Below are positions 37,378-42,032 of a stretch of 46,893 nt of DNA, piece after piece; the stretch's first letter is position 1; every line of letters begins with the position of its first letter. A model generated the notes under the pieces. That model was given only the letters and a program-made list of their open reading frames with translations. It ran no database searches and was not told the DNA's origin. The DNA is from a virus (Duplodnaviria > Heunggongvirae > Uroviricota > Caudoviricetes): positions 124,236 to 171,128 of IMG/VR virus record IMGVR_UViG_3300045007_000064, one strand, 5' to 3'. Position numbers and translations under genes: made by a program.

Positions 37378-39117
37378 TTACTGTCCGGGTTCTGCGAGCG
37401 GGAATGGCGGGGCGTCATCCCCAGGAGCAACCGGCTGCTCCGGTTCAGGCATGATGTCGCCCACTGTGGGCTGCATCGGGTCCTGCGGCGGTGCGTCTGA
37501 AGGCTGTGACGTGTCCAGCGGGGCGTTGGGGTCAGCAGGTACCGCACCCGTTCCTCCGTTGAGAATGTCGTTGACCTGTCCCGGAACCGGGGCAACCGAG
37601 GTAGCCTGTCCTGCACCGCGAGCGGCGTCGATGACATCGGGGGCCAGAACACGAAGCAGGGCCTCGGTGAGCTGCGGGTCCAGTCCACCCTTCTCCAGCA
37701 GCATGCGGAGCACAAGCTCCTTGCCGGTGGGAGCATCCTGATCTGCGAAGCCGTGGGCACGACGCCAGGTGTCACCCGAGATTGCCATCTTCTCATATCC
37801 GGAGTCGGCGTCAGCCGCGCGGTCATTGCGGGTCGCAACAGCGCTGGCGTCATACCAGACAGCGATACGGGATACGTCAGCCTGGCTCCATCCGTCGTTG
37901 ATGAGGGTGGGGCGCAGGTACATCGTGGTGAAGGCGTCAGCCAGCAGGAGCAGCATCGGCTCAATGTGGGCCTTGTACAGCGACTCGTCAATCTGGACGG
38001 CGTTGTTGTACTTCACATTTGCCAGACCGGTAACGGTGTCCTTGGGAACATCGAGACCCTGGAGGATACGCTCTAGAACGCGGTCAGCACGCGCAACCAT
38101 GGCGTCATCAAACGGACGGTCGAACGAGATGTGCTTCAGGTCCTTACCCAGCTCGGCAGGGCCGCGGATCAGAAGAGGCACAACGCTGGCGGCGCTGGAC
38201 TCATCCTCGATGGGCGTGGACATCGCCAGGAGAAGTTCTTCCTGGAACTGGTCGGCTACGTCCTCCGGCGTGGGGGCGTCCTCGTCCTGCTCTTCGAATA
38301 GACCGGAATCCGCCTCGGCGGAAGTAGACAAGCCGTCCGGAACGTACAGGATACCGGCATTCAGACGCGAACGGTGCGACCCGCGGAAGGTGCGGTCCAG
38401 AAGCAGAAGCTCCTCGCACAGCGCCAGCAGACCGATCATGTTCGTGTCCGGGTCCTCGCTGAAGCGGGGGTGCGGACGCCAAATGCGTCCCATGAACGCA
38501 TCGGACGGCAGCGGGATCGCACCCTTGGGCAGTGCACCGCCGCCGTTGCCAGGCTTGATCGCGCGGCGCGGGTAGATAGCGTAGTTGCCCTTGGCGTCAA
38601 CCTTCAGCTCGTCTACCGAGCGAATGTCCCAGCTCTCCGGCAGGCCCTGACCGATGCGCTCGGGCACCTGGACCAGGTAGCACTCACCGGCAACGGCGAG
38701 GTTCAGCGCGGCGTCACGGAGAAGTCCTGCCTGTCCGCCGAAGGCGGAGTCCAGACGCTCTAGTGCACGGCGAGCGGCGTCTGCAAGTTCTGCGTCAACC
38801 TTCTCAGACAGCGCCAAAGGTACGGGAGACTCAGCCGGGTCTTCCACGACCGCCACATATAGGCGAATTCGTGAAACAACGCTTGCCACGAGCTGGAAGG
38901 CGTACTTGACCTCGGAAATGGCGTCGTAGTACTCCCACGCCGCCTGCTGGACAGCAACGATCTGCCCGCCCTGCGCCTGACGGAACAGCTCCGCCTCGGT
39001 CTTGTCCTTGAGACTCACGCGCGCAGCAGCAGCGGTCATGCCTCGTACGGAGTTATACGGTACGGGCGCAACCGGCTGCGTGCTCGCTGTCTCGCGGCGG
39101 AAGATGTTGCCTGCCAT
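37378..39117 (-). CDS. portal protein
   Basis: 579 aa from ATG 39117 (TAATG overlap); AWEYYDAISEVKYA, GECYLV, WRPHPRF, ILQGLDVPK patterns of actinophage portals. Confidence 0.88.
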   Translation of the reverse strand: MAGNIFRRETASTQPVAPVPYNSVRGMTAAAARVSLKDKTEAELFRQAQGGQIVAVQQAAWEYYDAISEVKYAFQLVASVVSRIRLYVAVVEDPAESPVPLALSEKVDAELADAARRALERLDSAFGGQAGLLRDAALNLAVAGECYLVQVPERIGQGLPESWDIRSVDELKVDAKGNYAIYPRRAIKPGNGGGALPKGAIPLPSDAFMGRIWRPHPRFSEDPDTNMIGLLALCEELLLLDRTFRGSHRSRLNAGILYVPDGLSTSAEADSGLFEEQDEDAPTPEDVADQFQEELLLAMSTPIEDESSAASVVPLLIRGPAELGKDLKHISFDRPFDDAMVARADRVLERILQGLDVPKDTVTGLANVKYNNAVQIDESLYKAHIEPMLLLLADAFTTMYLRPTLINDGWSQADVSRIAVWYDASAVATRNDRAADADSGYEKMAISGDTWRRAHGFADQDAPTGKELVLRMLLEKGGLDPQLTEALLRVLAPDVIDAARGAGQATSVAPVPGQVNDILNGGTGAVPADPNAPLDTSQPSDAPPQDPMQPTVGDIMPEPEQPVAPGDDAPPFPLAEPGQ

Positions 39118-39392
39118 TATCCTACCTTCTGGTAAATGAGGCCTGTTACAGCCGATCCCGCTAGGGGAAGTCCAGCTACCATCATACCAGTAGGTGAAAC
39201 TACGTACAGAATAGCGAGAGGAATCGCTACCCAGAATGACATACACCACGGGCAGCCGAGTAGATATGCGAGCTTTCCACCAGGCTTGACCTTGGAGTAC
39301 GCCCAGTCACGCGGCCCATCCAGGATTTCGTCCTCGATGATGAGCCGCGTGGCTCGATAAACGGCGAGCAGAAATACGATGAAGCGGATCAT
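39117..39392 (-). CDS. membrane protein (DUF1360-like)
   Basis: LAVYRATRLI.ED.I...CPWCMSFWVA with hydrophobic helices. Confidence 0.7.
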   Translation of the reverse strand: MIRFIVFLLAVYRATRLIIEDEILDGPRDWAYSKVKPGGKLAYLLGCPWCMSFWVAIPLAILYVVSPTGMMVAGLPLAGSAVTGLIYQKVG

Positions 39393-40168
39393 AGCTTCCA
39401 GGGCCAGTTTCCGTGAATCTCGGTCTTCTCCAGGCCCGAGTCGTAGTAGTGATCTAGAAGCGCTCGGACGTAGTTGTCGTGGAGGTTCATCCGGTTCAAA
39501 ACCATGCTCGCCTCGCGGAGCCGGTACTGTAGCGGGTGGCGCTTCAGCGCACGATGCAGCTTCTTCAGCATCTTGGTCTTGCGCGGGGTGGTCGTCACGA
39601 TGACGCGAGGTCGATCACCAGTTCGGACCGCGGTGAGGAGGTTATCCCAGGCGTCGTTTACATCCTTTGACTTTGCACGACGCCACGAAGCAACCTCATC
39701 TGCCCACGCGAAATCAGCACCGACTCCCCGAATAGCGTCCGGTTCCTCCGAGGAAACGCAGAAAGCAACGGAACCGTTAGGCCACTCCAGGAGGCGCAGA
39801 CTGGGCTTGTATGTTGGGGCATCAGGGTTATGCAGTCCGTAGACGCCGAAGATTCCAGATTCTCCCTCCACCAGAACCTCGCGCACATCCGCTGCGGTAC
39901 GCGCAACCAGAAGAAGCCGGGACCCGGGGTTCTCTTCCGCGAACTTGATCGCCTCCTCGGCTCCGGTACGGGTCTTACCCGAACCGCGGCCTGCCGCGTA
40001 AATCCACACACGCCAGAGAGAATCCTGGGGCGGAATCTGGTCAGGGCGGCGCTCGGCCTCCCACTTCTCCCGGCCCTTCAGGCTCTCGATCTGGAGAAGC
40101 TGCTGGTCGCGGTCCTCTCCGGGCGGCATGCTCTTGACGGTTTCTTTCAGTGATCCTTTGTAGAACAT
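39389..40168 (-). CDS. terminase large-subunit ATPase-only paralog A
   Basis: 259 aa from ATG 40168 (GGAAGGA RBS, TGATG overlap); GRGSGKT, FAWADE, TTTP; aligns to TerL N-domain; no nuclease domain. Confidence 0.8.
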   Translation of the reverse strand: MFYKGSLKETVKSMPPGEDRDQQLLQIESLKGREKWEAERRPDQIPPQDSLWRVWIYAAGRGSGKTRTGAEEAIKFAEENPGSRLLLVARTAADVREVLVEGESGIFGVYGLHNPDAPTYKPSLRLLEWPNGSVAFCVSSEEPDAIRGVGADFAWADEVASWRRAKSKDVNDAWDNLLTAVRTGDRPRVIVTTTPRKTKMLKKLHRALKRHPLQYRLREASMVLNRMNLHDNYVRALLDHYYDSGLEKTEIHGNWPWKL

Positions 40169-40758
40169 CAGAACGTCCTTCCGTCTCCTGCTCGGGAGAC
40201 GATTGTGTCGGGGTGTAGCTTTGTTGGCTGCGTAAACAGGTACTTCTCCGCCATGGGGTATTCCTTGGCGATTTCGGCGGCATCGAAAACTTCGTCTGCC
40301 CATACATAGTCGAACATCATTCCACGGGCGGCTCCCCGAAGGAAGGCGTCCTCGGACATGCCCCGCAACGAGCGCTTGCTGCTGCGGTCGCGAATCGATA
40401 CAGCCCGCTCTACTCCATCGATTCTGTCGTAGTCAAAATGTCCAGACCACAACTCCGCGGTGTTCATGAAACGCTTGAAGGACAGGTCCATCTCGTACCC
40501 GCCTCCGCTGAAGATGCACAAAACGTTGGCTAGGTTGAAGAACTTGTTCCACGCCCAATACTCGCCCGCATAGCTCTTACCGCTATTAGGCGGAGCGACA
40601 ATCGTCCAGTACTTCCAATCGGAAGATGCAGGTTCGATCTGGAATGGGTAGGCGTTCAGTTCCCAGCTATAGTTCCACTCGTCATCATCGTAGAAGGCGC
40701 GGCGAGCTGAGCGTTCCGGCTCGGGGAGCGCTTCAATCTGCTGACGGAGAGTCTTCAT
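40168..40758 (-). CDS. divergent terminase ATPase-like paralog B
   Basis: 196 aa; YPFQ, APPNSGKS (Walker A), FDYVWADE (Walker B); N-terminus LRQQIEALPEPE...WNYSW resembles TerL QISLLPPDE...WDWSLW. Confidence 0.65.
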   Translation of the reverse strand: MKTLRQQIEALPEPERSARRAFYDDDEWNYSWELNAYPFQIEPASSDWKYWTIVAPPNSGKSYAGEYWAWNKFFNLANVLCIFSGGGYEMDLSFKRFMNTAELWSGHFDYDRIDGVERAVSIRDRSSKRSLRGMSEDAFLRGAARGMMFDYVWADEVFDAAEIAKEYPMAEKYLFTQPTKLHPDTIVSRAGDGRTF

Positions 40759-41168: not shown

Positions 41169-41538
41169 CTTCGGGTCCCGGGTCCTTGCTCGATCCCATG
41201 ATCTTGAATGGACGCCAGCTCCGCAGCCGCGATCCGCAGCCACAGGAGGCGTCCTTACGCCAGGCGAGCTTCTTGCCCGAGACGGTTGTCACGTACGAAT
41301 CGATGTGTACGCTGCCCTTGTAGTGCGTGGTGGGGTCAATCTCCTCGGAGAATACGACCTGTGGCCCCGCTACATCGTCCACCGCAACGGTCACTCGGTT
41401 TCCGGATACAACAACCCGGGTGATCGCCAGGTGCGCGGCATCCGGCGTCGGCGGACGGCTCTTCAGCTCTTCCACCGCCACAGGGAAGTCGGCAGCCGTA
41501 ATCACCAGCGTAGCTGGGAATGTGTCTTCGCGAATCAA
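41161..41538 (-). CDS. hypothetical protein with CGCG motif
   Basis: TTG start with AAGGAGAG RBS, 4-nt overlap with the HTH gene. Confidence 0.7.
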   Translation of the reverse strand: MIREDTFPATLVITAADFPVAVEELKSRPPTPDAAHLAITRVVVSGNRVTVAVDDVAGPQVVFSEEIDPTTHYKGSVHIDSYVTTVSGKKLAWRKDASCGCGSRLRSWRPFKIMGSSKDPGPEDA

Positions 41539-42032
41539 CTTACTCTCCTTGCCATTGCGCGGTAGCTGACGTTCGCGGCGTCCGCGAGGTCAGCGATGGT
41601 TACGCGCTCGTCATGGTGCAGTCTAACACAAAGCTCGGTCAATTCCCTATTCGACTTTGCCGAGGCGTGTCCCGGCTTCATCGTGGCGCGGTACTTGCGG
41701 GCGCTGGGAGCCAGCTCCTTGATCCGTGTAGCCTCGGCTGTCGTGAGCGGGCGTCGGGGCTTCTTCGGAGTGCTGGCGGGGGTCTGGAGCGTTGGGATAG
41801 GTGTAGTTGGCAGATCAGTATACGCGGACGCAATGGGAATCGGTGAATTGATCCAGTAACGAATCGTGGATCGTGCCCGAGGCGGGTCAAACGACTCCCC
41901 GATACTCCGGAGTGTCCACCCCGCCTGGTACAGCATCTTCGCTCGCGCGAATAGCTCGTACCCGGTAAGGTTCTGTAGCAGTTCTGCTTCGTAGGAGGGC
42001 AACGACTGCCCTCGCGCGGATCGGCGTGTCAT
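41535..42032 (-). CDS. helix-turn-helix DNA-binding protein (two HTH-like units; small terminase not excluded)
   Basis: GWTLRSIGESF..PRARSTIRYW and VTIADLADAANVSYRAMARR. Confidence 0.65.
   Translation of the reverse strand: MTRRSARGQSLPSYEAELLQNLTGYELFARAKMLYQAGWTLRSIGESFDPPRARSTIRYWINSPIPIASAYTDLPTTPIPTLQTPASTPKKPRRPLTTAEATRIKELAPSARKYRATMKPGHASAKSNRELTELCVRLHHDERVTIADLADAANVSYRAMARRVS

Follow-up and report, generated by a model that had tools for sequence, protein, structure and literature searches.

A complete terminase ATPase domain encoded without its nuclease between terL and the portal gene of a lake-water phage: a candidate accessory packaging ATPase

Background

The gene considered here, which we call paralog A (or simply A), lies in a 46,893-nt stretch of viral DNA (the window; positions 124,236 to 171,128 of IMG/VR virus record IMGVR_UViG_3300045007_000064) and codes for a 259-amino-acid (aa) protein resembling the ATPase part of the large terminase subunit (TerL). 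Its closest described counterparts are Cece gp64, Zooman gp65, Big4 gp69 and A3Wally gp80, orthologs that GenBank labels 'terminase large subunit (ATPase domain)' and that occupy the same slot, between a gene resembling the neighbouring paralog B and the DUF1360 and portal genes; the labels are annotations only. The first three are 45-52% identical to A and have the same C-terminal end.

Outside this group, phage T4 encodes vs.8, an uncharacterised terminase-ATPase-like protein (PMC13601566). Like A, vs.8 (~220 aa) is a stand-alone, TerL-ATPase-like protein with motifs of both Walker types, A and B, that exists beside a full TerL, but it is encoded far from genes 16 and 17 and not near terminase or portal genes. 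Homology between the two is negligible by hhalign (probability 10.7%, 49 columns around the P-loop only), and since the P-loop region alone could be aligned, vs.8 is best regarded as an analogue of A rather than as a member of its family. Caulobacter phage RW gp097c (L017:2445-3113; 222 aa, annotated 'large terminase subunit') is likewise ATPase-only, is 42% identical to the N-domain of its own TerL, is truncated at a nearly identical point in the linker, adjoins terminase genes and has retained its P-loop and R-G arginine. It differs from A in having Glu in place of the Walker B Asp, and in lying between TerL and the genes for the small terminase subunit (TerS) and a methyltransferase rather than before the portal gene. 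RW gp097c is clearly the product of a duplication of its own, which took place in another phage group, and from matching hit patterns we infer a gp097c-like gene in phages GB2A, RLK and KcrB. The engineered fragments D6E 1-234, P74-26 1-256 and T4 gp17 N360 have the same domain boundaries as the natural protein A, but these are laboratory truncations, with 12-18% sequence identity to A. Engineered TerL ATPase fragments bind ATP, oligomerise and hydrolyse faster once free of the nuclease domain (PMC5727402). A search of the literature on truncated or second terminases found nothing relevant.

Paralog A is therefore not new as an annotation, since its relatives are already labelled and half-terminases are known in other phages. 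It stands out by its full catalytic and trans-finger set, its reversed charge, a clear origin within its own lineage and its place in a variable cassette made up of packaging-protein fragments. It shares the ATPase fold, the family and the conserved ATPase residues with its own TerL and with other Terminase_6N/6C TerLs, such as that of Actinomycetia phage DSL-LC01; unlike TerL, it has no RNase H-like nuclease domain, C-terminal arm or intein. The analysis establishes that the protein is a complete TerL ATPase domain, and also its origin, the selection on it and the conservation of its residues.

Results

Protein A matches Pfam Terminase_6N (PF03237) over residues 57-202 with 56.1 bits against a cut-off of 22 (E 5.3e-15), and PHROG 2, 'terminase large subunit', at 3e-17. 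BLASTP against the 776-aa TerL of the same window gave two collinear blocks, A 6-104 with TerL 16-115 (45% identity, E 1e-18) and A 108-253 with TerL 385-540 (38% identity, E 4e-31), which are the TerL exteins flanking an intein. Overall, A is about 43% identical to the N-domain of the spliced TerL, and a 13-aa stretch is identical in the two. A preliminary description of this locus, made by reading the letters alone, had claimed that A aligns collinearly with the spliced TerL N-domain, with all the listed motifs and the identical stretch, and stops where the nuclease domain would begin. Both claims hold, the former by the two BLASTP blocks and the latter because the match is over by TerL residue 540, ahead of Terminase_6C, which is found only at TerL 571-718. 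Pfam gave no Terminase_6C match in A, which ends within the ATPase-nuclease linker. The whole genome record has a single Terminase_6C match, inside the 776-aa TerL, and three Terminase_6N matches, in TerL, in A and weakly in B. Searches of A with PADLOC and NCBIfam gave no match, and no further domain or family signal was found in A with Pfam, PHROG, PADLOC or NCBIfam.

The truncation is genuine, because the stop codon of A overlaps the next gene (Table 1), 13 orthologs end alike, and matching contigs are exact. The 13 orthologs, from isolates and metagenomes and 232-267 aa long, share the tail G-x-W-P-W followed by two residues, and contigs from three further lake-metagenome runs, possibly of the same sampling campaign, jointly tile positions 39372-40170 with zero differences and zero indels. 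Together with the lone Terminase_6C of the genome, these observations rule out a sequencing error or a hidden nuclease domain, which the preliminary description had named as what would overturn its reading. At the other end of the gene, the ATG of A (40168-40166) overlaps the TGA stop of B (40170-40168) by one base (TGATG), and this one-base overlap is likewise annotated in Big4 and Zooman.

An AlphaFold2 (AF2) model of A, built on an 88-sequence alignment, has a predicted local distance difference test score (pLDDT) of 95.7 and a predicted template-modelling score (pTM) of 0.91, with pLDDT at ~95 right to the C-terminus. The best Foldseek matches to this model in the PDB are the ATPase domains of T4 gp17, P74-26, D6E, Sf6 and HK97 TerL; for those of T4 gp17, P74-26, D6E and Sf6, E ranges from 4e-9 to 3e-7 and the query-normalised template-modelling score from 0.58 to 0.63. 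Both parts of the terminase ATPase fold, the RecA-like core and the lid subdomain, are present by AF2 and Foldseek. At the sequence level, a PDB search with the A family profile returned nothing at E 0.01, and a wider profile search of the PDB returned weak T4 gp17 matches only.

The motif set of the additional strand catalytic E (ASCE) ATPases is complete in A and comprises the Q-motif, Walker A (GxxxxGK[ST]), Walker B with the catalytic Glu, and the C-motif. Residue conservation was scored over 13 A-family members and 75 TerLs. In each of the two sets, the same 39 positions reach at least 90% conservation, among them Q44, residues 60-67, R96, E-G-E-S-G 101-105, R147-G148, D157-E158, R182 and T192/T193/P195, and only 6 of the TerL-conserved positions are relaxed in A. 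Within the motifs, G60, R61, G62, G64, K65, T66 and R67 of the P-loop, W155, D157 and E158 at Walker B, and T192, T193 and P195 of the C-motif are invariant across the A family and the TerLs. In the C-terminal tail, the A family shows no variation at G253, W255, P256 or W257, and at least 90% of TerLs as aligned share W255 and P256.

Hydrolysis within a TerL oligomer needs arginine fingers that act in trans (PMC5727402), and both candidate positions for such fingers in A, R147 and R182, are invariant in the 13 A members and in the TerLs. R147-G148 pairs with V-R-G of T4 gp17 in a HMMER profile alignment and lies 11 residues before the catalytic Glu; a weak match to P74-26 (chain 4zni) has the same arginine-to-Glu spacing of 11 residues (R139/E150). 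Biochemistry has confirmed R139 of P74-26 as a finger that acts in trans, and the equivalent residue of T4 is an arginine as well (PMC5727402). R182 would occupy the position of D6E R158 and phi29 R146, an assignment made from secondary structure and not from residue-by-residue superposition; these two arginines are confirmed fingers located in the loop between helix 3 and strand 4 (PMC5727402). From the intact Walker A, Walker B and coupling motifs, the preliminary description had suggested an active or ring-competent ATPase. This is probably correct, considering that the catalytic and trans-finger residues are kept and that the gene is under purifying selection.

Whether A arose by duplication in this genome or by horizontal capture had been left to phylogeny by the same description. 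We built an IQ-TREE phylogeny (LG+C20 with posterior mean site frequencies, PMSF) of 13 A members, 7 TerL N-domains of the lineage (intein removed), DSL-LC01 TerL, its relative P0055 and 23 other TerLs, with the root placed among the other TerLs and two long-branch rows, A3Wally gp80 and gp78, left out. The A-family members group together as a clade (support 100/100), with the TerLs of the lineage as their sister group (97/95), and DSL-LC01 TerL and P0055 form the next outgroup (100/100). An earlier quick tree placed A identically, with weaker support. The stem of the A clade measures 0.88 substitutions per site versus 0.16 for the TerL stem, a difference of about 5-fold. Since A is sister to the lineage TerLs, with DSL-LC01 and P0055 outside, A appears to derive from an old terL duplication within the lineage that predates the divergence of the known members, and this placement disfavours horizontal capture from a distant phage. 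A protein search returned 13 short members with E < 1e-62 and then passed straight to full-length TerLs at ~1e-46, and on this evidence the A family appears confined to this phage lineage. Two candidate stand-alone forms were rejected, P0087 as cut by a contig end and P0078 as half of a frameshifted or split TerL.

Purifying selection acts on the A gene. For Big4 vs Zooman, which form the closest pair, the ratio of nonsynonymous to synonymous substitutions (dN/dS) is 0.025 for A and 0.028 for TerL; in deeper main-family pairs the ratio for A is 0.2-0.45, and in pairs with the degenerate A3Wally gp80 it reaches 0.65. At the protein level, A orthologs are 45-66% identical to the A of the window, as against 72-88% for the TerL N-domains. 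The 13-aa stretch identical in A and TerL is kept at the protein level, since the identity of its third codon positions is only about 0.3-0.4 and thus near-random, which also rules out recent gene conversion from terL as its source. Allele exchange as the cause of the higher synonymous divergence (dS) of A was considered and dropped, because dS is saturated and because the TerL tree, itself poorly resolved, does not significantly contradict the A tree.

Genomic context

A lake-water metagenome yielded the 171-kb viral contig whose right-hand 47 kb make up the window. By megablast it is ~80% identical, over conserved parts, to the ~190-kb Microbacterium phages Big4 and Zooman, with Cece, A3Wally and Pumpernickel more distant. 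The minus strand carries, in order, the genes for TerL, a 165-aa helix-turn-helix (HTH) protein, a 125-aa protein, a small open reading frame (ORF), B, A, DUF1360, the portal protein and a 1799-aa protein (Table 1). The slot of A is constant in the isolates Big4, Cece, A3Wally, Zooman and one further isolate relative, as well as in the metagenomic P0008 and P0012, where TerL is followed by the HTH protein, small genes, B, A, DUF1360 and the portal. The genes for B, A, DUF1360 and the portal are chained by stop/start overlaps of 1 or 4 nt, and A is most likely made together with the portal protein from one tightly overlapping late operon, with translational coupling likely. The cassette itself is plastic, with 1 to 3 TerL-N-like genes per relative: the B type only in Pumpernickel, B and A in the window, Big4, Zooman and Cece, and three TerL-N-like genes in A3Wally and one further relative.

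Table 1. Coordinates of paralog A, its motifs and the adjoining genes (window positions; residue numbers are those of protein A)
Feature	Position	Strand	Description and basis
Portal gene	37378..39117	-	Start shares one base with the DUF1360 stop; ORF list, Big4 annotation, weak Pfam Phage_portal
DUF1360 membrane-protein gene	39117..39392	-	Pfam DUF1360 2.3e-10; PHROG 781
ATGA overlap	39389..39392	-	A stop 39391-39389 / DUF1360 gene start 39392-39390; sequence, ORF list
Paralog A gene	39389..40168	-	Stand-alone TerL ATPase domain, core and lid subdomain, without nuclease domain; translation, Pfam, BLASTP, AF2, Foldseek
C-terminal tail W255-P256-W257	39398..39406	-	Keeps the conserved TerL linker Trp; A ends two residues later
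C (coupling) motif T192-T193-T194-P195	39584..39595	-	Aligned to T4 gp17 T-T-T-P
R182	39623..39625	-	Second candidate trans-arginine, between the post-Walker B helix and the C-motif strand; model; invariant
Walker B strand with D157 and catalytic carboxylate E158	39695..39712	-	Aligned to T4 gp17 I-D-E
R147-G148	39725..39730	-	Candidate trans-acting arginine finger; T4 gp17 HMMER alignment, P74-26 spacing; invariant
E-G-E-S-G-I, residues 101-106	39851..39868	-	Uninterrupted counterpart of the TerL class 3 intein site; alignment; invariant in the A family
Walker A / P-loop, residues 60-67 G-R-G-S-G-K-T-R	39968..39991	-	Includes P-loop arginine R61
Q44, Q / adenine-binding motif Gln	40037..40039	-	Invariant in 13 A members and 75 TerLs
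Shine-Dalgarno-like AAGGA	40176..40180	-	7 nt upstream of the A ATG; sequence
Paralog B gene, 196 aa	40168..40758	-	TerL ATPase core fold without lid, acidic, degenerate active site
TerL gene, 776 aa	42029..44359	-	Terminase_6N, class 3 intein and Terminase_6C; parent lineage of A

The TerL of every lineage member carries an intein within the ATPase domain, at a site that is uninterrupted in A, and no ATPase motif is missing from TerL once it is spliced. The window TerL also has a 10-aa insertion in the lid region, D-R-R-K-D-V-E-G-A-G (residues ~486-495), which is missing in all seven aligned relatives. Directly after TerL, the 165-aa protein (41535-42032) has a weak C-terminal HTH_38 match, and its gene is 498 nt long in the window and all relatives except Pumpernickel (504 nt). 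Since no small terminase is annotated in this lineage, the 165-aa protein is a candidate for that role. On the other side of A, the DUF1360 gene separates the A slot from the portal gene in all relatives examined, among them Pumpernickel, with overlaps at the start and stop codons, which makes a membrane protein an odd fixed member of the packaging operon. For the portal, the longest ORF (37378-39249) has a GTG start at 39249; the true start is the ATG at 39117 (M-A-G-N-I-F...), according to synteny, the one-base overlap with DUF1360 and the Big4 annotation.

Paralog B matches Pfam Terminase_6N with 18.8 bits, below the cut-off. Its AF2 model has a pLDDT of 88.5, and the Foldseek matches of this model are the P74-26, D6E and Sf6 ATPase domains. 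An N-terminal helical element is common to TerL, A and B. Some B-family members, as well as A3Wally gp78 and gp80, have lost some of the catalytic residues, whereas A keeps all of them. A complex prediction of A with B returned a score of 0.02 (mark 0.32), which has no bearing either way. Between Big4 and Zooman, B is 78% identical with a dS of 0.59 (window 40168-40758; L001:4193-4777; L006:9409-9993), as compared with 98-99% identity and a dS of 0.24-0.43 for TerL, A and the portal protein, a pattern that suggests either an exchange affecting only B or very rapid divergence of B. Across the B family, the central part of the protein is hypervariable, and its first ~55 residues and S-R-A-G-D tail are conserved. 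The third TerL-N-like gene of A3Wally, gp78 (L003:9652-10275; also L007:9652-10275), shows 44-47% identity to TerL where the two align, has G-K-R for G-K-T in Walker A, has lost the Walker B D-E and contains a ~45-aa insert; its appearance is that of a distinct partial copy without activity. In GenBank, genes of the B type carry the label 'nuclease domain' or 'helicase domain' (L002:4234-4812, L003:10253-10885, L006:9409-9993, L007:10253-10885). Since fold prediction and motifs point to an ATPase core, these labels, and the split terminase that they imply, are mistaken.

Discussion

We propose that A works, in an oligomerisation-dependent manner, as an accessory packaging ATPase, being a stand-alone copy of the TerL ATPase that is functional and competent for catalysis. 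From the data above we infer its activity, its oligomerisation and its packaging role, and we assign this reading a probability of about 0.5. What argues for a packaging ATPase is the combination of intact catalysis, trans-acting residues, an operon shared with the portal gene and derivation from terL. By this proposal, terL was duplicated inside the phage lineage and the copy lost everything beyond the ATPase-nuclease linker. The product would bind and hydrolyse ATP in an oligomer, either with itself or with TerL, as it keeps the arginines that in terminases fire the site of the neighbouring subunit. Because it is without the nuclease domain and the C-terminal arm, it would be an accessory packaging ATPase unable to cut DNA, one that may grip or move DNA or may dilute the nuclease copies in the motor. 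When D6E TerL is deprived of its nuclease domain, kcat increases from 7.8 to 458 per min (about 60-fold), and the C-terminal arm of D6E TerL, for which docking on the portal has been proposed, also locks the monomer (PMC5727402). By analogy, A may be an unrestrained ATPase that cuts no DNA and probably does not dock as TerL does.

A more specific version of this proposal is that A and TerL form a heteromeric ring, in which basic, nuclease-free A subunits stand beside acidic TerL subunits and exchange arginine fingers with them. Fewer nuclease domains would then be present at the portal, thereby protecting the ~190-kb genome from premature headful cutting. We consider this version doubtful. To our knowledge, all characterised viral DNA-packaging motors have been treated as rings of one TerL species, and a mixed A/TerL ring, if true, would be the first natural heteromeric terminase motor.

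Several observations weigh against an accessory packaging ATPase. A conserved active site would be equally expected if A only binds ATP or mimics TerL to a partner. Compared with TerL, moreover, A is basic and not acidic, has a diverged lid surface and a faster rate of evolution, and can be dispensed with in some relatives. Its dN is 4-5 times that of TerL in the deeper pairs, and in the lid region (residues 221-240) conservation is 0.47 in A versus 0.94 in TerL. The isoelectric point (pI) of A is 9.0-9.8, with a net charge of +3 to +13, in 11 of the 13 main-family members, whereas the TerL N-domains of the lineage have pI 4.7-5.0 and a net charge of -10 to -15, and the B-type proteins have pI of about 5-7. 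The net charge of A is thus reversed relative to TerL, and because of this reversal the TerL-like surfaces that build the ring may have changed; the nuclease domain and its C-terminal arm are absent altogether. Pumpernickel has an intein-bearing TerL and a B-like gene with no A, an absence that represents a loss, since the Pumpernickel TerL is nested inside the TerL clade. In A3Wally the ortholog gp80 is degenerate, with R147 and R182 lost, the C-motif altered and the tail diverged. Because A is absent in one relative and degenerate in the other, it appears to be accessory and dispensable for the lineage.

Some of these points would suit a protein that works by binding only. Such a modulator could titrate or cap a partner of TerL (for instance the portal clip, a protein resembling a small terminase, the ends of the DNA or the terminase of a competing phage), or could act as a decoy for host sensors of TerL such as Avs1-3 and Upx. 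Fast evolution and a reversed surface charge fit this reading, as does retention of the N-terminal helical element of TerL, A and B, and A does sit in a variable cassette of one to three TerL-N-like genes that includes B, a degenerate copy of the TerL ATPase. But a poison or a cap has no need of the catalytic Glu, the C-motif or two trans-arginines, and all of these are invariant in the 13 sequences, which disfavours the dominant-negative subunit that had been suggested at the outset. As for the decoy, host sensors that read the TerL ATPase domain do exist, and co-expression assays have shown activation of EcAvs2 and Upx by TerL ATPase domains on their own as well as by T4 vs.8 (PMC13601566). 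An additional ATPase domain would more likely be a liability, and a simple immune decoy is disfavoured because TerL ATPase domains activate these sensors rather than block them (PMC13601566); the PADLOC search of A, too, gave no match. We regard a binding-only modulator as possible. A TerL-derived ATPase working outside packaging, as a translocase or remodeller on replication or recombination intermediates or in concatemer processing, or at the membrane with DUF1360, seems unlikely to us. It would fit the basic charge and the lost portal-docking half, which are compatible with DNA binding away from the portal, as well as the overlap of the A stop with the start of a conserved membrane-protein gene, and T4 vs.8 illustrates that terminase-like ATPases can sit far from packaging genes. 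However, wherever a relative has A, the gene keeps its place within the TerL-to-portal operon, and A has no other domain or family signal that would point to such a function.

The GenBank annotation of B and A as 'nuclease domain' and 'ATPase domain' suggests still another arrangement, a split terminase, in which A would lend its ATPase to a separate nuclease or to the unspliced, intein-bearing TerL precursor. The intein that interrupts the TerL ATPase domain in every lineage member, at a site left uninterrupted in A, is in line with this. Yet B has the fold of an ATPase core and not of a nuclease, the lone Terminase_6C of the genome is inside TerL, the spliced TerL already has its full ATPase motif set, and Pumpernickel has the intein without having A, so that a split terminase is very improbable. 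Least probable of all is that A is a functionless duplicate in decay. It is true that A evolves faster than TerL, was lost in one relative and is degenerate in another, but its frame is intact in 13 lineages with an identical end, dN/dS is 0.025 in the closest pair, 39 functional residues are kept and the fold is predicted with confidence; these selection and conservation data effectively refute decay. Among these possibilities, we retain an accessory packaging ATPase as the preferred reading of A.

Conclusions

For annotation, our data contradict labels that treat A genes and the B-type genes beside them as the two parts of a split terminase. More generally, natural genes for the ATPase half of a terminase, maintained by selection, recur beside terL in unrelated phages. 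Paralog A is a useful test case among them, as it appears catalytically intact, inter-subunit residues included, and has a clear origin from the resident terL. Natural controls are at hand in Pumpernickel, where A is absent, and A3Wally, where it is degenerate, and Big4, Zooman and Cece are cultured on Microbacterium strains. Should A work in or on the motor, it would reveal how phages tune the stoichiometry of nuclease versus ATPase; if it does not, it would show the re-use of a packaging ATPase.

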